Shown here: positions 8,717 to 45,712 of the stretch, one piece after another
How the letters are laid out: each line of letters opens with the position of its first letter
Numbering within the stretch: the first letter of the stretch is position 1
From: a virus
Lineage: Duplodnaviria > Caudoviricetes
Direction: 5' to 3' (one strand)
IMG/VR virus record: IMGVR_UViG_3300008085_000051
Location: 1-45,712 of that record
DNA: 45,712 nucleotides
Position numbers and translations under genes: made by a program
Notes under the pieces: generated by a model
Told to the model about the DNA's origin: nothing
The model's database searches: none
The model's input: only the letters and a program-made list of their open reading frames with translations

Positions 8717-9163
8717 ATGGCTGAAAAGGATGTGAATTCATCCCTTGTTTGCTTGGCAATGAAAAGGCACAATTTTAAGTACTGAAAAGTATTTAGGGTT
8801 GGTACCGAGTAATTATGTCCCCTAAGGTGGAGAAAACATCAGGATTGGTCTAATCTTGATGAACTTATGCACTCACACATTAAGTAACAAAATCTAGATA
8901 AAATATAGACAAGCTGTGTGGGTTTATCTAAATCCTTATTGACGAATAAGACAAATTTAGAGATGACTGAATAAGGGTACATATATGAAAGGTTGTAGGT
9001 ATTAAAAGAGTCCTACTAAACGAAGTAAAGCATGAACACCTTTACTTCAAGTGGAGTAGTGCATAAACACACTTAAACTGGTTGCCCAACGTTTGTCTAC
9101 ATTAACGAAAATATTATAAAAATGTGGGAGTCCTCGACATGGCTAATAACTGTCGAACTTTTA
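8717..9163 (+). ncRNA. Candidate large structured ncRNA (about 445 nt), family unknown
   Basis: No ORF of 60 aa or more; own promoter; at least 9 helices including a GAAA tetraloop, a long-range 9-bp pair and a 3' hairpin followed by a T-tract. Confidence 0.7.
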
Positions 9164-22624: not shown

Positions 22625-23005
22625 TTATTTTGAGACTTTTTTCATTTTGTGAGTATTAGGATTACTTTGTATATAAAGTCTATCAGATTCTTCTAATTTC
22701 TCACAAGCAACACACCCAACAGTGTGATAATAATGTTCTCCAAAATCAGAGTTATCCATTTTAGGACAAATACAATTAGGTAATAACCAAGATTGATGTT
22801 TAAGTTTATTTAATTTAAATTTCCAAAGACCTTGTAAAACATAATTTATATCTCTCCATTTGTAAAGTAAATCTAAATATTCTTTTGAATTTATATCTGT
22901 TGCTTTTAATAAATCTATTATTTCATCTCTTTTTTTATGTAAAGACTTAATGTTAATTATTGCAACTTTTTTAAGTCCTTGTTTTTTAGCTAATTGTAAG
23001 TTCAT
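22625..23005 (-). CDS. Hypothetical Cys/His-rich protein
   Basis: CICPKMDN...CVAC; overlaps the ligase stop (ATGA). Confidence 0.75.
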   Translation of the reverse strand: MNLQLAKKQGLKKVAIINIKSLHKKRDEIIDLLKATDINSKEYLDLLYKWRDINYVLQGLWKFKLNKLKHQSWLLPNCICPKMDNSDFGEHYYHTVGCVACEKLEESDRLYIQSNPNTHKMKKVSK

Positions 23006-24921
23006 AGTATACCCTCTTGACTTAATTGTAATTTTATTAACCTTTCACATTCTTTTCGTATTGTTTGTAAATTAGGGTTTTGTTTCTTTAAAAGTTTTTT
23101 GAATTCTTCAGTACAAATATCATAACACACATTATAACTTAAAATTGGTATCCATCCAGGTTTAACTGTATCATTCTTGGCATTCTCTAATTGTTTAATA
23201 TGTTTATTAATTCTTGCTTGGTTACAGAACTTATGAGCAAATCCTGACTCAAAATCATTAATTTCACCAAATACTTCTTTATTCTCTTCTTTGAATTTCT
23301 CTGTGACTATCTTGGCTACGTGCCTATTTCCAAAACTATCTCTGCTAAATTCAAAAGGTTTTATTACAACACCTTCTGCTTGAAAGTTCCCATATTTACT
23401 ATTTGGTATTTCTTGATTCCAGCATTTATAATAACCTTGAAAAATAATAGGTGCTAATTCGCAACCTAAATGTTTAGATATCTCTTGAATAACATTAATA
23501 AATAAATATTTATCTTCTTCAATATCATAAATATCAATTAGTATTGCTTTTGGGTGTTTATCAAAGTCATAAGGTAAAGTGTGTTTCATCATACCCTCAA
23601 AATAATAAATATTCCCTTTAACAAAGAAACAAGTATTTAAAGATTTTATGTATTCGACTACTTCTGTAAAGTTTCCATAACTACAATTAGGATCTGATTC
23701 AGGTAAAAACTCTACAGTTCTACTACCAAACCTAAGTTCGTTATTTTCATCTCTCCAAACTCTGAAATTAGAATTATGGACTTGGACGCCTTTTACAAAA
23801 TAGTTATGATTGTCTGCAACTTCTAAATCATATCTTGGGCTTTTTTTATTATTTATCTTTTTGATAGAAATTATTTTACATACTTTAGGTAATATTTCAC
23901 AATCTAAACTTAATATTTCTTTATGATATTCAATAGGTATTTTATATTTCATTGAATCTATGATATAATCATTAATTATTTCAAATAATTTTTTTGTTCC
24001 ATTTTTTGTTAAATCAATTTGCCAACCTTTATAATTATGCTGTGTTGATTCTATATTATATTTATGTAATAAAACTTCTCTTAAGATGAAAACTTCGTGT
24101 TCAGTAAATCCTTGTGTATGAAATTTAGCTCTAGGTTTTTGAGTATCACTAAATCCTGTACTTCCATCATCCATAAACCAAACTGCTAGTGCTAATGGAG
24201 TTAAATACTCTTCTACTCCAACATTCGGGATTTTTTTCTTACCATTTTTATACATAAATTCAAATTCTTTAAAAACCTCATTACTTTTACTATGTATTCT
24301 ATATTTTTCAGTGAAATTATATTCTTTTGAATATTGTGATTTATAATATTCTTCATAGTCACATAATTCACCTAAAATATCTTTTTTCCATTTAAGATAT
24401 TTTTCTTGTTTAATTGAATGTGTTTCTGAAAACATTGGATTACAAGATTTATTCATATTTCTAAATGAACCATCTCCCAATATACTCCCAAATAAAATAC
24501 TTTTTTGAGTATCATTCAAATTTATTTTATTAGAGATTAATTTATCATTATGGTTTAAATCTTTAACCTGTTTTATTCCATTATTTGTAAAAACATTATG
24601 ATTATCTGTAACAATCAAATATCTTTCTTTACCAAAATAATCATATTTTAGTTTAACCCAGTTATCAGAAGGGGTGTGTTTATAATATTGTGTTATTGGT
24701 TTAAAAGATTTATTTCCATTTTCATCCATAGATAACGCCTTTACATCCATCTTACCATTCACTATTCTACCTATTGCAATCATACCTTTATCTGTTTGAA
24801 CTTTCATACCATAATCAAAACAACCATCTATTTTCTCTGGAATATATACTATTTCATCATCTTTAAATGTAGAACCTTCATCTTTATTAATTCTCCTTAT
24901 TTTATCAAATTTATGTACCAT
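23002..24921 (-). CDS. ATP-dependent RNA ligase (Rnl2-like) containing an intein
   Basis: Spliced motif I EKIDG|SNFR; FGSR; YFEG; IDI; AEGVVIKP; AKIVTEKFKE. Confidence 0.88.
   Translation of the reverse strand: MVHKFDKIRRINKDEGSTFKDDEIVYIPEKIDGCFDYGMKVQTDKGMIAIGRIVNGKMDVKALSMDENGNKSFKPITQYYKHTPSDNWVKLKYDYFGKERYLIVTDNHNVFTNNGIKQVKDLNHNDKLISNKINLNDTQKSILFGSILGDGSFRNMNKSCNPMFSETHSIKQEKYLKWKKDILGELCDYEEYYKSQYSKEYNFTEKYRIHSKSNEVFKEFEFMYKNGKKKIPNVGVEEYLTPLALAVWFMDDGSTGFSDTQKPRAKFHTQGFTEHEVFILREVLLHKYNIESTQHNYKGWQIDLTKNGTKKLFEIINDYIIDSMKYKIPIEYHKEILSLDCEILPKVCKIISIKKINNKKSPRYDLEVADNHNYFVKGVQVHNSNFRVWRDENNELRFGSRTVEFLPESDPNCSYGNFTEVVEYIKSLNTCFFVKGNIYYFEGMMKHTLPYDFDKHPKAILIDIYDIEEDKYLFINVIQEISKHLGCELAPIIFQGYYKCWNQEIPNSKYGNFQAEGVVIKPFEFSRDSFGNRHVAKIVTEKFKEENKEVFGEINDFESGFAHKFCNQARINKHIKQLENAKNDTVKPGWIPILSYNVCYDICTEEFKKLLKKQNPNLQTIRKECERLIKLQLSQEGIL
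23773..24822 (-). mobile_element. Intein (350 aa) with LAGLIDADG homing endonuclease
   Basis: Begins CFD; block B VTDNH; LFGSILGDG and LAVWFMDDG; ends YDLEVADNHNYFVKGVQVHN followed by Ser. Confidence 0.93.
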
Positions 24922-28098: not shown

Positions 28099-29286
28099 AT
28101 GAGTAAATGGGCTAATACAATAATCAACAAATTTGAAGAGAAATATTATAATGGTTTAATCACCATTAATCATATTCCTGATAATAAAGAAGAGGTTACT
28201 TTTAAAGAAGATACAGGTATGGAAGATGATAAAGGTAAGCCTATTGTAGTTAGTTATAAGATTTGGGGGTGGAAACTACCTTATAAACAACAAAAGATGT
28301 TTATCCCTGATAAAATAGGTGACCGAGATACTTTAGATTTACTTCCTATCAAAATAACAGAAACTGAAGAATTTAGTTATAAAAATGAAGTGTTGTTAAG
28401 GGTATTAAATGCTCAGACTTTCAGAATTAAACCTGATTTGTTAATGACTATGGAAGAAATGTTCGATGACTTAATACAGATTAAACATAGTAGTCCTAAA
28501 GATTATCAAGTATTTATTGCATTAATATTAAGTCAAATACCTTTAAAGTTTAATTGGAGACTTGCTACAGTGGGTGGTTTTGGTAAGACTAATACTTATA
28601 AACAAATATGTACTTTATTACCTTCCAATATGATTATTAAATTAAAGTCCGAGAGTAAACTTATGAAAGAATCACACGAAAGAACAAGTCTTGTTATTGA
28701 AGAGTTTACCGATGTTAGAAGACAGGTTAAAGTAGATACAGAGGATTTCTTTAAGATAACTGCGGATGGGAGTAGTAAAATTATTAATCCTGCTCATAAG
28801 TCTGCTGCATTTCAAACATTAGACGAATATGATATAAGTAAAATTAGTTATGGTTTTTTTTATAATACTTATTATGATGCTTTAAAAAAGAATAGAGGCG
28901 ATGAGTATTTTGATTTCGTATATGATTTTCCCACAAGACAAAGATTTTTTCCTTTATATCTTGAAGGTGAATTAGATGGAAGTCAATTTGATGTACCTCT
29001 ACAAGATATTCAAAGACTTTATGATGAGAATGAAGGCTTTTATTTAAAGTTTATAAAAAGTATGTTATATTATATTGAAAATCCCTCAGAACTTATTAAA
29101 GGTAAAGAAAATTGGGTTTGGAAAAATAATAGAGTTAGTTTATTAAATGCAGACAGATTAAAAACTTCATTAAATAAATTTTTAATAGGAATGAAAGCGT
29201 GTAGTAAAACTGAAAAAGATTTTAATAATTTAGCTGATGAAGTATGGGTAAGGTATAAATTGTATTCAGAACAATTATCTGAATAA
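28099..29286 (+). CDS. Divergent P-loop ATPase, probable MCM-like replicative helicase
   Basis: GGFGKT Walker A, LVIEEF Walker B, TRQRF putative arginine finger. Confidence 0.55.
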   Translation: MSKWANTIINKFEEKYYNGLITINHIPDNKEEVTFKEDTGMEDDKGKPIVVSYKIWGWKLPYKQQKMFIPDKIGDRDTLDLLPIKITETEEFSYKNEVLLRVLNAQTFRIKPDLLMTMEEMFDDLIQIKHSSPKDYQVFIALILSQIPLKFNWRLATVGGFGKTNTYKQICTLLPSNMIIKLKSESKLMKESHERTSLVIEEFTDVRRQVKVDTEDFFKITADGSSKIINPAHKSAAFQTLDEYDISKISYGFFYNTYYDALKKNRGDEYFDFVYDFPTRQRFFPLYLEGELDGSQFDVPLQDIQRLYDENEGFYLKFIKSMLYYIENPSELIKGKENWVWKNNRVSLLNADRLKTSLNKFLIGMKACSKTEKDFNNLADEVWVRYKLYSEQLSE

Positions 29287-31570: not shown

Positions 31571-32353
31571 ATGGACTTAAAAAAGAAAATAAATGAACTA
31601 ACTGGTTTGGAATACAAATATTGTGACAAACCCCTGAAAGGTGGAGATATACTTGAACCTACAGGAGAATTATTCAAAGATGTGGTGTGTTTAGACTTCA
31701 AGAGTTTCTACCCTAGTATTATTATTAGTCTTGAATTGTTTGGTCATAAAATGAATGAGTTTCTTAAAGAACAAATGAAATTAAAGAATTTGGGAGACAA
31801 AGACGCCAAGTTAATAATGAACAGTATTTATGGTTATTTTAAACACTATGACTATGAAAAAGCATGTATAGTGACTAAATTAGGTAGGGAAACCATAAGA
31901 AACCTTAGAGAGTATCTTAAAGAACAAAATTTTGATATTATTTATAGTCATACTGATAGTGTTATGGTGTCAGATATTAAAGATAAAGATAATTTAATGA
32001 GTTTTGTAGATGTGTTTGTTAAATCTCAGTTTCTTAACTTGACTTTAAATATAGAAAATGAGTTTAAATTTATATATTTCCAAAAAATAGGAGATAATTT
32101 TGCTAAAAATAGATATGTTGGAGTTGATTATAATGATAGATTACATTTAAAAGGTATAACTCTTAATGAAGAAGAAATAAAAATGATAGATTTTATTCAA
32201 TATACATTGTCTAAAGGTAGTAACATTTGCAATACAAAAGAACTACAGCAATACTTAGAAAAATACTACAAATCTAATGAAAAAAAACAAAGGTTTATAA
32301 ATCTAGAATTATTAAATATAATTGACATGGAAAGTCATAAAGTAAATTTTTAA
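31571..32353 (+). CDS. polB: Minimal family B DNA polymerase (no 3'-5' exonuclease domain)
   Basis: KGG, LDFKSFYPSII, KLIMNSIYG, YSHTDS, KNRY and LKG motifs within 260 aa. Confidence 0.9.
   Translation: MDLKKKINELTGLEYKYCDKPLKGGDILEPTGELFKDVVCLDFKSFYPSIIISLELFGHKMNEFLKEQMKLKNLGDKDAKLIMNSIYGYFKHYDYEKACIVTKLGRETIRNLREYLKEQNFDIIYSHTDSVMVSDIKDKDNLMSFVDVFVKSQFLNLTLNIENEFKFIYFQKIGDNFAKNRYVGVDYNDRLHLKGITLNEEEIKMIDFIQYTLSKGSNICNTKELQQYLEKYYKSNEKKQRFINLELLNIIDMESHKVNF
32288..32301 (+). promoter_or_regulatory. BRE+TATA promoter inside the 3' end of polB
   Basis: caaaggTTTATAAA; ATG at 32327 at 33 nt. Confidence 0.65.
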
Positions 32354-34386: not shown

Positions 34387-35145
34387 ATGAGTTTAGAATA
34401 TAACGACGAAAACCACACTTATGAAGTTAAAGGTAAAAGACTTATAGGAGTTACTACTTTAGTTCATAAATATAGTAGTGATTTTAATAAAGAAGAAATT
34501 ATTGATAAAATATTCGAAAAAAGTTATCATCCTGAAATATATTTAGGTTCTAATGGTAAATATAGGTTCTTCACTAAAGAAATGATATCTCAATTATGGA
34601 AAAATAAAGCTGAATATGGGACTTTTATTCATCAATTAGCAGAAGATATTATTAATAACAAAGAAGTCTTAGTTAAGTGTCCTGAGGTTAATCAAATCAA
34701 GAGATTTTTAAAAGAAGGTTATGAAGTAATTGCTACAGAACTTAAAGTGTATTCGGAAGAGTTAGGTGTTGCAGGCACAATAGATTTAGTACTAAAGAAA
34801 GGCGACAAATATTATATTGCAGATTGGAAGACTAATGTAGGTAAAGATTTAAGTGATATTAATGGAGATAGATGGACAAACTACTTAAAAAAACCATTAA
34901 ATAACACTCCAGATTTACCTTTTTGGTTATATAGCTTACAAACCTCTGTATATCAATATATATTACAGAATGATGTGAAGTATAAAGACACATACAAAGA
35001 GTTTGGAGATAACTTTTTAATACATTTAACGGGAAGTAAAGATGAACAAGTGTATAATATGTCTAAAATTGATTATAAAAAGATTAATGTTCCTTTCATG
35101 CGACAGGAAGTAGAATTAATGTTAGAGGGTCTAAAGAATGGATGA
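34387..35145 (+). CDS. PD-(D/E)XK exonuclease (RecB-like)
   Basis: GTFIH, TELKV, AGTIDL, ADWKT and LQTSVY motifs. Confidence 0.88.
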   Translation: MSLEYNDENHTYEVKGKRLIGVTTLVHKYSSDFNKEEIIDKIFEKSYHPEIYLGSNGKYRFFTKEMISQLWKNKAEYGTFIHQLAEDIINNKEVLVKCPEVNQIKRFLKEGYEVIATELKVYSEELGVAGTIDLVLKKGDKYYIADWKTNVGKDLSDINGDRWTNYLKKPLNNTPDLPFWLYSLQTSVYQYILQNDVKYKDTYKEFGDNFLIHLTGSKDEQVYNMSKIDYKKINVPFMRQEVELMLEGLKNG

Positions 35146-36028
35146 AAAAATAAGATTATTTAGTATGTTTAGTGGATATGGAGGAGCAGAATTTGCTCTT
35201 CAAAAAGCGGGAGTGAATTATGAAGTTGTAGGTTATAGTGAGATTGATAAATACGCAATTCAATGTTACGAACAAAATCATAGTAAAGTTAAGAATTATG
35301 GAGATTGTACTAAGATTAATCCTAACGACATTCCAGACTTTGATTTACTTACAGGTGGTTTTCCTTGCCAAGCATTTAGTAATGCAGGTAAAAGATTAGG
35401 CGAATTAGATACAAGAGGAACATTAGTTTATGATATTGTAAGAATTGCAGAAGTTAAACAACCTAAGTGGATTGTATTAGAGAACGTTAAAGGATTTACT
35501 TTCAAGAAATTTAAAGATACTTTTGATAAAGTTTTGAGTGAGTTTGATAGAATTGGTTATAATATTAAATATCAAGTGTTGAATACTAAAGATTATGGTG
35601 TTCCACAAAATAGAGAAAGAGTAATATTTGTAATGTATAGAAAGGACTTAGAATATACTTTCGAGTTCCCCGAAAAACAAGAACTAAAATTATCTTGGAG
35701 GGATTTAAAAGATGACGAAATTAACTATAAAAAGGTAAAAAAAACTCCTTCTAGAGATATTATGAGAGAAAAATGTAAAAATATTACTACTGAAGATATT
35801 GTAAGTTGTATATCTTTAAAACAAGATAGATTTCCAAACGCGGGAATAATAGATTTTGAAGATTATTATAGATTTTTAACTCCAATTGAAGTATTTAGGT
35901 TACAAGGATTCTTAAATAATGAGATTAATCTTGAAAACCTTAGTGATACTCAAAAATATAAATTAGCAGGTAATGGTTGGAGTATTAATGTTTTTGAACA
36001 AGTGTTTAGAAATATGTTTAAGAAATGA
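35138..36028 (+). CDS. C5 cytosine DNA methyltransferase
   Basis: FSGYGG, GGFPCQ, ENV, PQNRER, RLQGF and AGNG motifs. Confidence 0.96.
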   Translation: MDEKIRLFSMFSGYGGAEFALQKAGVNYEVVGYSEIDKYAIQCYEQNHSKVKNYGDCTKINPNDIPDFDLLTGGFPCQAFSNAGKRLGELDTRGTLVYDIVRIAEVKQPKWIVLENVKGFTFKKFKDTFDKVLSEFDRIGYNIKYQVLNTKDYGVPQNRERVIFVMYRKDLEYTFEFPEKQELKLSWRDLKDDEINYKKVKKTPSRDIMREKCKNITTEDIVSCISLKQDRFPNAGIIDFEDYYRFLTPIEVFRLQGFLNNEINLENLSDTQKYKLAGNGWSINVFEQVFRNMFKK

Positions 36029-41695: not shown

Positions 41696-42209
41696 GATAG
41701 TAATACTAATATAGAGTATTATATAAATATTTGTTCTTACGAGGAGTAGTAAATAGAATTAGTCTTTTTGTTGTTATTATGTAGTAGTGAATAGATAATA
41801 GGTGTATTAGTATGGGCGGATATATAAATGTATATAATGTATATAAATGTATATAGTACTATATGTAGGATACAATGTGTAATCTTATGTTATTGTGATG
41901 TATTACATATACTATAACATAGGATATGATGATCTAAAATTATGTAAATAACATAAAATAACATCATATAACACAAATATTGTATATAATGTAAATACTA
42001 TAAATAATGTCATTATAACCCCTTCCAATAACTCTTTTTATTGTTACATATGTCGTACTATTGTTTTTATATTGTGTTGTAGTGTGTTATATATGTATAA
42101 CAAATGTATATAGTAGTATATAGTTACATATGTTTTATACAAATGTATATACCAACATATATTTCAAGAATAAGCATAAGGTTACATAGGTGTATATATA
42201 TATAGGTCA

Positions 42210-42257
42210 TTAGATACATTGTTAGATACATTGTTAGGTACTTTGTTGGATACATTG
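42210..42257. repeat. 12-bp tandem repeat, 4 units
   Basis: ttagatacattg ttagatacattg ttaggtactttg ttggatacattg. Confidence 0.85.
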
Positions 42258-42312
42258 TTTATATCATAGTTACAACCTTAGTGTAACACAAGTATCGTTG
42301 TAAAACAACTTC

Positions 42313-42645
42313 AAGAAAAAGTCAAAGGACTGTTGTGATATTAATTCACTCTAGGCAAATATATTAATGTTTTGTGAATACAGTTGTAGTGAATATTATA
42401 TCACACTTTTATCATAACTTTCCTTTAACTCTATAGAACGTTTAAGTTATATTAAGACACTTACCCACAATCCATACTCTTGATATCCTCAACCTTTGTG
42501 TTGCCAGTCAGGTTTACTTGTCTCCAAAAGGATTTACTTGTGTCTTTGTTGTTCAGAACTTCACCAACGATTAGGTTCTAGCTATATCAGCTCAGGGGGC
42601 ATAAGCTTCTTTTTACAGAGTGACTTATGGTCCTTACTTATAATT
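42313..42645 (-). ncRNA. Candidate structured ncRNA (about 330 nt), family unknown
   Basis: Minus-strand promoter at 42667-42681; 5'/3' closing helix; several internal stems; GCAA tetraloop and G-U pairs favour the minus strand; U-tract at the 3' end. Confidence 0.6.
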
Positions 42646-42666
42646 ATACTTTATGTGATAATTTTC

Positions 42667-42736
42667 TTTATAAATATTTGGTTCGAATTTCGAACCTATA
42701 TGGTATAAAAACAGTATAAAAGCAAAGGTTTATAAA
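42667..42736. promoter_or_regulatory. Divergent promoters with an intervening palindrome
   Basis: Minus ccaaataTTTATAAA (42681-42667); palindrome ggttcgaa-t-ttcgaacc (42680-42696); plus gcaaaggTTTATAAA (42722-42736). Confidence 0.7.
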
Positions 42737-42757: not shown

Positions 42758-42901
42758 ATGAAAGCATATAAAAGTTTTAGTTGTCCTAATTGTGGGAGTA
42801 AAGAAGTACAAGCAGGAATACAAAATCGAGGGGTAACTTTAATATTTGCAAGATGTTTAAGTTGTGGATTTATGAGACAAAGTATGGCGAGATTTAGTTA
42901 G
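42758..42901 (+). CDS. 47-aa Zn-ribbon protein, not in the ORF track
   Basis: MKAYKSFSCPNCGSKEV...ARCLSCGF; ATG at 29 nt from the TATA start. Confidence 0.75.
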   Translation: MKAYKSFSCPNCGSKEVQAGIQNRGVTLIFARCLSCGFMRQSMARFS

Positions 42902-42905
42902 TAAG

Positions 42906-43418
42906 ATGGGTAAACATAAAGATGTAACAAGTATTGTTAGGACTAAAGCTTCACAACAATACAGAGATTTGACAATAGCGCATAATGAAAGAACTACAAA
43001 ATGGGCTGAAGCGTTAAGTAAAGTTCGTGGACTTAGTGTTGACGAGATACAGGCTGAAGTAATTGCTTTCTTCCTTCAAGAGTTAAGAAATACTGATGAC
43101 CTTGCCACTATGAGTAAAGTAAATATAGCCACTTTGACTATGAAAGAGCAGTTAAAGTTTGAGACCAAGAAAGCTCATTTAGAAAGAAAGTATAATAAAG
43201 CTATTGATGAGGGTGATGAACAACTAGCTGAAATTATATATGAAGAGATAATTGAGTTATTAACAGATACAGAAGCAGATTATAAAAAATTCAAAGCAAT
43301 TAATGATGCTATTAAAACAATGAAATCATTAGAGCCTAAGAGTATAACTGTGAATACACAATCACAGGATGATAAAATGATATTTGATATTAAAGATGGA
43401 GTATATACTGAAGAATGA
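42906..43418 (+). CDS. Probable terminase small subunit
   Basis: 170-aa helical protein directly upstream of and overlapping terL. Confidence 0.55.
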   Translation: MGKHKDVTSIVRTKASQQYRDLTIAHNERTTKWAEALSKVRGLSVDEIQAEVIAFFLQELRNTDDLATMSKVNIATLTMKEQLKFETKKAHLERKYNKAIDEGDEQLAEIIYEEIIELLTDTEADYKKFKAINDAIKTMKSLEPKSITVNTQSQDDKMIFDIKDGVYTEE

Positions 43419-44920
43419 AACTTACTATTGATGATTTAAAGAGAGATTTAGAATTTCAAGAATATTATGATACTCTTAATAGTAATCCTTACTACACTAA
43501 ACTTACTAATGAAGATAAACAGAGGTTTGAAGAGTATTGTACTCCTATGCTTAAAATGTCACTTACTATTGCTAAAAGACATCCTTTTTTATGGGGGAAG
43601 TGGGTTTGTGGTATTAATCCTTATGATTATCAGTTTAAAATGCTCGATGATATGTATAAATACAAATTTTTTATATGTAATACTTCAAGACAAATAGGTA
43701 AATCTTTAGTTATTGCTATTTTTGCATTTTGGGCCGCTTATAATAATGTTTATCCTGTGGGTATTGACAAGAAAACAAAGATAGGTATTGTTTCAGCTAC
43801 AGAAGACCAAGCAAAGAAGTTATTAAGAGATATTTATACAGTGATTCAGAACGCAGATGGAGTATTTGCAAAACTTACTAAAGGAACTGAACACTCATCA
43901 AGACAATATTTCACTAATAAAATGACTGAGAAACCTACTGCGTATAAACTTATGTTTCCAAGTGGAACTATTGAATGTTTCCCTCCTACTAAAAAACTAA
44001 GAGGTAACTCATTTAGTTTCTTGATTATTGATGAAGGCGATTTCTTAGGTTGTGAAGACCCTAATTATTTCTTTAACTCCGAAGCTTTACCTACTTTAAA
44101 GAAAACTGATGGGCATTGTATTATTTGTAGTACACCTAAAGGAACTCCGAGTTATTATAGAGATATATTTAGACCTGAGGAAGAGAATCCTGCGACTGGT
44201 TGGCATAGAGTTTGGTATAATTGGACCATTTACGAAGATGACTGGGTTAATGGATGGGTTAGACGACAACAATCTATAGAACAAGGAAAATTAAGAGACT
44301 TTGAAGCAGAGTTTGAAGCAAAATTCACATCAGGTAGATACAGTTTCTTTGACCCAGAAAAAATAGATAAATGTACAGCTTTAAGAAGTAGCATTGATGA
44401 ATGTTATGAAAAAGTGTATGCTGGGGTAGATTTTGGTAGTGTAACTTCAAGAACGGCAGTAACTTTAGCATATTTTGACGAAAAAGAACAGAAATCTATT
44501 ATTTTAAGAACTAAAGAGTTTGTACAAAAATATGAAAACGATAAACTTGTTGATTATTTTAAAAGATTAAGAGAAAGATATAGATTACATACAATAATTA
44601 CTGAGTCGTGTCCTGCTGGTGACACGCCTATAGCGTTATTAAAGAGAGCTGGGTTTAGGGTCTTGGAGTTTAATTCAAAAGCGGACAAAATCAGAAGTTA
44701 TGAGAATATGCAAATAGCAGTTAATAACCAAAAAATAGAGTTCTATCAAGACAAAACTATGTTAATGCAATTAAAAGGTTTAGAAGCAATAGAAACTAAT
44801 ATGGGCAACACTCAAATACATAAACCTAAAGGAATGAATGATGATGTTGCAGATAGTGTGATGTTCGCTATAAGTGAGTTCATCAAACCCAAAAAAGGTG
44901 GGAAGAGGTATATATTATGA
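43415..44920 (+). CDS. terL: Terminase large subunit
   Basis: PYDYQ, SRQIGKS Walker A, LIIDEG Walker B, STPKG, GVDFG and DDVADS. Confidence 0.95.
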   Translation: MKLTIDDLKRDLEFQEYYDTLNSNPYYTKLTNEDKQRFEEYCTPMLKMSLTIAKRHPFLWGKWVCGINPYDYQFKMLDDMYKYKFFICNTSRQIGKSLVIAIFAFWAAYNNVYPVGIDKKTKIGIVSATEDQAKKLLRDIYTVIQNADGVFAKLTKGTEHSSRQYFTNKMTEKPTAYKLMFPSGTIECFPPTKKLRGNSFSFLIIDEGDFLGCEDPNYFFNSEALPTLKKTDGHCIICSTPKGTPSYYRDIFRPEEENPATGWHRVWYNWTIYEDDWVNGWVRRQQSIEQGKLRDFEAEFEAKFTSGRYSFFDPEKIDKCTALRSSIDECYEKVYAGVDFGSVTSRTAVTLAYFDEKEQKSIILRTKEFVQKYENDKLVDYFKRLRERYRLHTIITESCPAGDTPIALLKRAGFRVLEFNSKADKIRSYENMQIAVNNQKIEFYQDKTMLMQLKGLEAIETNMGNTQIHKPKGMNDDVADSVMFAISEFIKPKKGGKRYIL

Positions 44921-45444: not shown

Positions 45445-45712
45445 ATGACAATGCAAACACTCATAAAATGGCCTGGTGGTAAAACAAAAGAATTTATCTA
45501 TATAAAAGATTTAATTCCTTCTTTTGAAAGATATATTGAACCTTTTTTTGGTGGTGGAGGAATATTTTTTCAGTTAGAACCTAAAAATACAATAATTAAT
45601 GATATTTGTGAAGAATTAACTGACTTTTATTCTTTGTTAAAAGAAGAGAATGAAAGAGAAGATTTTAAAAAAGAATTATATGAATACGCTAATAACTGGG
45701 AGAAAATACCTA
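45445..45712 (+). CDS. Dam/D12-class DNA adenine methyltransferase, 5' part (continues at the window start)
   Basis: MTMQTLIKWPGGKTKE...YIEPFFGGGG...IIND. Confidence 0.93.
   Translation, partial: MTMQTLIKWPGGKTKEFIYIKDLIPSFERYIEPFFGGGGIFFQLEPKNTIINDICEELTDFYSLLKEENEREDFKKELYEYANNWEKIP
45590..45712. repeat. Terminal overlap identical to 1-123
   Basis: Direct sequence identity. Confidence 0.97.

Follow-up and report, generated by a model that had tools for sequence, protein, structure and literature searches.

The intergenic locus and its promoter

The window, that is, the whole stretch of 45,712 nucleotides analysed here, is a complete 45.7-kb virus record with direct terminal repeats and 27.7% G+C, which encodes portal, head, neck and tail proteins, the terminase large subunit, a short family-B polymerase and an intein-bearing RNA ligase. 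Many of its genes are preceded by a purine-rich BRE-like stretch and TTTATAAA, which are archaeal-type signals, and an ATG lies 21 or 25 nt downstream in 14 of the 26 plus-strand boxes. A terminase search of 50,697 annotated phage records returned a sole relative, that of the haloarchaeal Halogranum tailed virus 1 (24%), which together with the archaeal-type promoters points to an archaeon as the likely host. The sequencing runs with the best coverage of the virus were labelled aquifer metagenome; no RNA run was found among the listed runs containing the virus, and the DNA contigs aligned to the stretch gave little cover and no variants.

The family-B polymerase (31571-32353, plus strand) has only 260 residues, has two relatives (266 and 272 residues) among proteins of similar length, and is possibly a split or minimal polymerase. 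The RNA ligase gene (23002-24921, minus strand) is split by an intein with a LAGLIDADG endonuclease, and the gene at 28099-29286 (plus strand) has no Pfam match, its nearest Atlas clusters (score 0.94) carrying DUF5906, which provides a helicase-like lead. Three DNA methyltransferase genes of different classes were located at 45-1456, 35138-36028 and 45445-45711, and one adenine methyltransferase gene crosses the end repeat of the record. No convincing primase match was obtained among the window frames scanned, and ARAGORN detected neither tRNA nor tmRNA in the window genome.

The element under study lies in a 1.3-kb gap between small leftward genes on one side and the terminase operon on the other. 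The operon begins with a plus-strand TATA box (42729-42736) located by promoter scan, followed by a 47-residue zinc-ribbon gene (42758-42901; below family cut-offs, with homologues in the related contigs L029 and L032), a likely small terminase subunit (42906-43418; assigned by position, with no family match) and the terminase large subunit (43415-44920; family match). The original prediction placed a minus-strand TATA box at 42674-42667, and TTTATAAA is indeed present there with a BRE-like stretch upstream; the entire archaeal-type promoter spans 42667-42686 (minus strand) and stands back to back with that of the terminase operon in the window, the two TATA boxes being 55 nt apart. Directly upstream of the RNA TATA box, between the divergent promoters, lies the palindrome GGTTCGAA-A-TTCGAACC (42680-42696), a perfect 8-base inverted repeat that may be operator-like. 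L028 and L032 also have it ahead of their RNA promoters, and L029 and L033 do not. The predicted transcript covers 42313-42645 on the minus strand, where the start near 42645 is placed from the box-to-ATG spacing of 21 or 25 nt elsewhere in the genome and the 3' end is guessed at a U-run.

Further along the direction of transcription, the minus strand carries two copies of the motif TTCTTGAA, the first being a conserved DNA-type motif (42310-42317) and the second (42163-42170) having a conserved upstream context. A repeat search also identified five overlapping copies with 12-base spacing beside AT-rich repeats (42198-42272, plus strand). These 12-base and AT-rich repeats appear origin- or packaging-site-like, and the segment 42160-42317, with its paired TTCTTGAA motifs and conserved context, is a candidate origin or packaging signal.

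Homologues and the conserved core

For the homologue search upstream of terminase genes, a terminase alignment was used to fetch 21 viral and 64 metagenome loci. With the window RNA as query, L029 (E = 1.8e-9), L028 (1.5e-6) and L033 (0.015) were matched and L032 was found by eye, so that the RNA is present in four relatives, whose terminases are 45-53% identical to that of the window. In all five viruses the RNA is encoded on the minus strand at the matching site, ahead of the terminase operon, and pairwise identity is 48-63%; a profile built from any four members finds the fifth with E values of 3e-13 to 8e-19 (1.26 Mb searched). The promoter spacing is likewise kept, since the TATA box is followed by the first invariant core bases at 34, 34, 34 and 35 nt in four of the five members (58 nt in L029). 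In L033, a 256-residue gene (minus 2602-1832) is situated between the terminase operon and the RNA promoter and ends right at that promoter; its start resembles a PAPS-reductase-type motif.

The conserved structured core (42411-42632, minus strand) measures 222 nt in the window and 185-243 nt in the family, the 185-nt form being that of L033, and its G+C content is 50-52% in L032 and L033 and 36-38% in the others. It is predicted to comprise five helical regions and two pseudoknots, with the elements in the order GAC, P1, CCC, P2, P3, A-rich junction, P4 with P4b and GGGU, variable hairpin, P5 with its GRGU loop, and 3' strand. P1 (42600-42629), which was recognized by covariation, consists of P1a (42629-42624/42605-42600) and P1b (42619-42617/42610-42608). 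In an unedited MAFFT alignment, all 43 of its cells pair and six of its nine pairs change on both sides; the covariation score was reached by none of 500 shuffles, and slid controls were 24-40% paired. The P2 hairpin (42580-42592) contains three pairs with both-side changes, and the P3 hairpin (42555-42579), also recovered by RNAalifold, presents in its loop (42570-42563) the 5' strand of pseudoknot 2. The alignment then shows an A-rich single-stranded junction (42547-42554) with an invariant A-x-A-A-C. P4 (42454-42546; strands 42546-42540/42460-42454), again supported by covariation, encloses P4b (42534-42530/42473-42469) and the GGGU strand of pseudoknot 1, and both-side changes were observed in the hand alignment at six of the seven P4 pairs and all five P4b pairs. 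The P5 hairpin (42420-42439) carries a conserved GRGU loop (42431-42428) in the alignment, and its stem is weak and variable except for the two loop-closing pairs.

Both pseudoknots are predicted, the second being a long-range one. Pseudoknot 1 would join the invariant GCCC (42597-42600) to GGGU (42466-42463); the two strands are complementary in all five members and, as they are invariant, give no covariation. In pseudoknot 2, the 3' strand (42412-42419) would pair with the P3 loop. In this register 31 of 40 cells are complementary, whereas none of 35 other offsets gave more than 26, and two both-side changes occur; one invariant U-U column never pairs, and C-A is found at one column in two of the five members.

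Over the nine helices of the five-member hand alignment, 188 of 196 cells pair and 24 of 42 pairs change on both sides, compared with a mean of 139.9 and a maximum of 157 paired cells in 20,000 shuffles. Because the hand alignment was adjusted to match the structure and the shuffles take no account of how the members are related, the P1 test on the unedited alignment is the cleaner of the two, and five distinct sequences are too few for a phylogeny-aware covariation test. Among the fully filled columns, 51 of 166 are invariant, many of them in junctions and pseudoknot strands. Forcing the conserved helices costs 0 to 3.8 kcal/mol relative to the free optimum. The window alone gave folding z scores of -0.61 (minus strand) and -0.63 (plus strand), with 28 of 100 shuffles folding as well, and z was near zero in four of the five members. 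Such values count against the structure, but they would also be expected of an RNA whose folding depends on tertiary contacts or on a partner.

Insertions are confined to the periphery of the core, namely the leader (L029), the segment after P2 (L032), the interior of P4b (window and L029), the segment after P4 (L028) and the 3' end (window and L032). The variable insertion of the window (42485-42519, minus strand) forms an AACCU/AGGUU stem with a GCAA loop; L029 has a different insertion there and the other three members have none. The 3' hairpin of the window (42334-42405, minus strand; 72 nt) is absent from the four homologues, and L032 carries behind its RNA core a structured 3' extension of about 145 nt (minus 546-400) closed by a long stem.

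These data substantially revise the fold first drawn, which was a closed multibranch RNA of about 330 nt. The five stems named for it by TGTGATA, ATAACTT, AAGACAC, AGCT and CATAAG are exact complements in the sequence, and the ATTCACT (42344-42350/42388-42394) and AACCT (42491-42495/42510-42514) stems are also present. Three stems of that list hold, CATAAG/CTTATG, AGCT/AGCT and AAGACAC/GTGTCTT being conserved with compensatory changes in the homologues; P1b, P3, P4b, P5 and both pseudoknots were missing from it. The ATAACTT/AAGTTAT stem proved to be window-specific and partly overlaps pseudoknot 2, the 42334-42405 hairpin (z -2.56 against mononucleotide shuffles) occurs in the window only, and the AACCT stem with its GCAA loop falls inside the variable insertion and is not conserved. 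The closing end-pair, at -8.4 kcal/mol, was matched by 24% of 300 shuffles and has no equivalent in the four homologues. As these last three features (the 42334-42405 hairpin, the AACCT stem and the end-pair) occur in the window virus alone, the conserved unit is an open, pseudoknotted chain with lineage-specific insertions, not a closed multibranch loop.

The RNA had also been grouped with an element at 8717, a kinship that was not borne out, as neither the RNA profile nor the covariance model matches that element; in two relatives (L031 and L032) the matching site is too small to contain it. The element itself (8717-9163, plus strand) is a candidate RNA preceded by a BRE-TATA of its own. None of 100 shuffles folded as well (z -3.23), and the element showed only weak look-alikes in Rfam (FuFi-1, E 0.027; manA, E 1.7).

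The minus strand proposed as the RNA strand was corroborated by the five-member hand alignment, which holds 12 G-U against 2 A-C cells. On the opposite strand, a 70-codon frame with a TTG start (42496-42708) is not a conserved gene: the aligned frames contain stops in L028 and L033, an 18-residue match exists only in L029, and L032 has none. Covariation in five viruses, the promoter spacing and this non-conserved frame thus support the original prediction that a structured non-coding RNA is encoded on the minus strand under its own promoter, and we consider the covarying element very probably a real RNA. The view that the stems arose by chance, or as the shadow of a gene in the 42496-42708 frame, could draw on the single-sequence z of -0.6; it is largely refuted by the covariation and by the stops in the homologous frames, and is now scarcely credible. 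PMC5737381, which describes ARRPOF, GEBRO and PAGEV, warns that single-stranded DNA gives the same covariation signal, so that covariation alone cannot distinguish the two. A structure formed in single-stranded DNA during replication or packaging would also suit the origin-like neighbourhood; however, the upstream TATA box in all five members with its spacing kept, and the excess of G-U on that strand, make such a DNA structure very improbable.

Distribution and comparison with known RNAs

Among the lineages with a terminase identity of at least 42% and informative upstream DNA, the RNA was present in four of seven. No RNA was found at the site in L039 (with L031), L036 or L035 (with L034; about 450 nt of upstream DNA), all of them fragment contigs, and L026, L030, L037 and L038 were left out of the count because their contigs end too early upstream. 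In the terminase tree (19 rows), L039 falls between the L032 and L033 clade and the clade of L028, L029 and the window; the presence of the RNA needs two changes on this tree, and a single change was obtained on none of the bootstrap trees. The RNA was most simply lost in the L039 lineage, although the contigs are fragments and a copy may lie elsewhere.

This distribution bears on the role in packaging that had been suggested for the RNA. The phi29 pRNA is a viral non-coding RNA with its own promoter and intermolecular loop pairing, and the present RNA is similar in being a viral non-coding RNA with its own promoter and in its possible intermolecular loop pairing. A packaging RNA of this type, acting on the terminase-portal motor, would also be in keeping with a promoter that, in the window, diverges directly from that of the terminase operon, and with a surplus of complementary strands that could form rings. 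In contrast to phi29, however, the motor here is of the terminase type with a likely small subunit gene in these viruses, and no sequence likeness to pRNA was seen; a phi29-type pRNA is a required partner, whereas no copy was found at the site in relatives that share the terminase family (42-52% identical), and the best RNA score in a 31.9-kb record of the L039 lineage, itself a fragment, was 13.4 bits. Furthermore, another gene separates the RNA from the operon in L033. The three relatives without the RNA at the site thus argue against an obligatory packaging or primer role, and we regard a packaging RNA as improbable.

Wider searches extended the family no further. A DNA search of the 50,697 annotated phage records gave 17 weak matches to the promoter only, and four pattern scans of viral contigs (108, 2, 25 and 119 loci, the last covering 37 of 64 parts) yielded, once filtered by profile and by pairing, nothing beyond the same virus and chance matches. 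The GTDB terminase scan yielded no relative, none of 120 loci passed in the GTDB RNA pattern scan (14 of 64 parts), the portal scan gave no further RNA-bearing virus, and the covariance model R1, run over 45 sources, detected only its five training sequences. The next R1 match, L056 (16.2 bits), was rejected because it lies opposite a reading frame of an unrelated phage. Within IMG/VR, only the virus of the window was found to carry the RNA. Two more distant loci, L041 (minus 545-340) and L052 (minus 8090-7850; terminase 33-37%), share at the same site a different non-coding element, in which a GTCC-GCCA-GGAC hairpin lies behind TTTATA with several AAAGCGTAA repeats and no R1 match.

The RNA had been thought undescribed, and in agreement with this no match was obtained in the window at the Rfam 15 gathering threshold. 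Loose Rfam scans gave snoR24 for the window (E 8.2), nothing for L033 and the Na+ riboswitch for L032 (E 3.2), and the ROOL, GOLLD and ARRPOF family models matched none of the window, L032 and L033. The group I intron core and RNase P RNA have a similar core size, pseudoknots and peripheral insertions; unlike them, this RNA has no exons, no conserved end-pairing and no family match. A group I intron was rejected because the RNA is intergenic with its own promoter and because P4, whose sequence varies freely, cannot be the P7 guanosine site; look-alikes of R with two mismatches occur in two of the five members, and of S in none. RNase P RNA was rejected for want of a 5'-3' closing helix P1, and a motif comparison gave a CR-I look-alike in one of the five members and CR-V in none. 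As for the small self-cleaving ribozymes, the hammerhead and hairpin loop B core motifs are not common to all five members, and the other classes gave no Rfam match in the window, L032 or L033. A few short words resemble the HEARO or omega RNA consensus, but they come in a different order; the scanned frames include neither IscB nor TnpB, and Rfam gave no match. A guide or bridge RNA (omega RNA, IS110) was likewise discarded, no nuclease or recombinase family of the kind such RNAs serve being found among 58 frames, and the best match of the RNA to its own genome is 14 nt long and lies in the non-conserved hairpin. Word likenesses to motifs of the hairpin ribozyme and of the cobalamin and SAM-I riboswitches failed in order or conservation.

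A new ribozyme class would be consistent with the 185-nt minimal core with its two predicted pseudoknots and invariant junction bases, and with the invariant single-stranded residues and the insertions at five peripheral sites. It would also agree with PMC5737381, according to which an RNA that combines pseudoknots and highly conserved bases is likely to have a demanding biochemical task, a criterion tied there to RNAs in several phyla. On the other hand, there is no Rfam ribozyme match in the window, L032 or L033 and no known catalytic motif common to the five members, the RNA interrupts no gene and lacks exons on either side, and it exceeds in size the small self-cleaving classes. On balance, we consider a catalytic RNA quite unlikely.

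The closest parallels in style are the ornate RNAs of phages and plasmids. ARRPOF, of about 255 nt with several pseudoknots, resides in a gene-free region tied to replication (PMC5737381, PMC12990946) and forms homodimers (PMC12990946), and is thus comparable with this RNA in size, in the predicted pseudoknots and in a gene-free setting that may be origin-like. ARRPOF, however, belongs to Fusobacterium plasmids and has four pseudoknots, whereas the window RNA has two predicted ones and a virus with archaeal-type promoters. ROOL and GOLLD are virus-borne like this RNA, pseudoknotted as this RNA is predicted to be, and form RNA-only oligomers, ROOL being non-essential in one strain (PMC12286853); in contrast to them, the present RNA has at most one third of their length, a different helix order and a genome without a tRNA gene. 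With regard to multiple pseudoknots, the nested helices covary, pseudoknot 1 is invariant and pseudoknot 2 has its two both-side changes. With regard to homo-oligomers, which phage and plasmid RNAs of similar size and style form (PMC12286853, PMC12990946), the window RNA has a surplus of complementary strands, a feature predicted from its sequence. The likeness of the RNA to these ornate RNAs is therefore one of style, and it belongs to none of the families concerned.

Adjoining DNA and possible roles

The relation of the RNA to the DNA that follows it is pertinent to its function. Two TTCTTGAA copies are found also in L028, L029, L032 and L039, one in L036 and a variant in L033, and the motif (TTGAAG) follows the core at 7, 9 and 16 nt in three members and at 96 and 176 nt behind a self-contained 3' hairpin domain. 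As L039 and L036 keep the motif without the RNA, TTCTTGAA is an element separate from the RNA. Under a cis-acting model, which follows the logic of ColE1 RNA II and recalls the location of ARRPOF, transcription would run into the TTCTTGAA motifs and repeats, and the folded 5' part of the RNA would set up a primer, R-loop or loading site at the adjoining origin- or packaging-site-like DNA. The same site and direction in all five members, the placement of TTGAAG past the core or its hairpin domain and the tandem and AT-rich repeats downstream are in its favour, as is the presence in the virus of genes for a short family-B polymerase and a DUF5906 helicase-like protein, with no convincing primase match among the frames scanned. 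However, L039 retains both motif copies and L036 one without the RNA, the order of genes is conserved across these related viruses in any case, and the origin or packaging nature of the downstream DNA is itself inferred. A cis role is accordingly doubtful, albeit arguable.

We favour, with a probability of roughly 45%, a trans-acting accessory scaffold or decoy RNA. According to this proposal, a discrete stand-alone minus-strand RNA would be transcribed from the archaeal-type promoter with a start at about 42645, would fold into a compact double-pseudoknot core, and would exert its accessory effect in trans by pairing with itself or by binding a protein. The accessory, probably non-essential character is suggested by the patchy presence of the RNA among relatives, and no partner protein was identified. 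The core ending 7, 9 and 16 nt before TTGAAG in three members fits a cis role as well.

Self-pairing is conceivable because the RNA contains three GRGU strands (42479-42476, 42466-42463 and 42431-42428) against two complementary RMYC strands (42621-42618 and 42600-42597), so that one GRGU strand might pair between molecules to give a conjectured oligomer. In L032 and L033, A is changed to G in two GRGU strands together with the matching U to C. Nevertheless, this co-change is only a lead, since the clade of L032 and L033 is richer in G+C and since, in L028 and L029, one of the four RMYC/GRGU positions is mismatched.

Full-text literature searching, with most subscription papers outside its scope, found no description of this RNA. 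PMC10690425 reports 8,495 predicted motifs from IMG/VR, which are 29-151 nt long and had to be represented by three unique sequences each; overlap with that set is unlikely given that only one IMG/VR virus was found with the RNA, although a fragment could be listed there. The five members thus represent a real, apparently undescribed structured-RNA family in tailed viruses with archaeal-type promoters.

Large pseudoknotted RNAs of unknown function are known mostly from bacteria and from the plasmids and phages of bacteria, and several form RNA-only oligomers. The family described here differs from them in architecture and comes from tailed viruses whose transcription signals are of archaeal type; its 185-nt L033 version provides a natural minimal form amenable to host-free in vitro work. 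That the RNA represents a new catalytic class, or a ring-forming RNA that acts where terminase-type archaeal viruses package or replicate their DNA, is unlikely, but, if true, either would be the first of its kind within the literature searched. Should the RNA prove catalytic or assist packaging or replication, it would constitute a new biochemical role for RNA in archaeal viruses.
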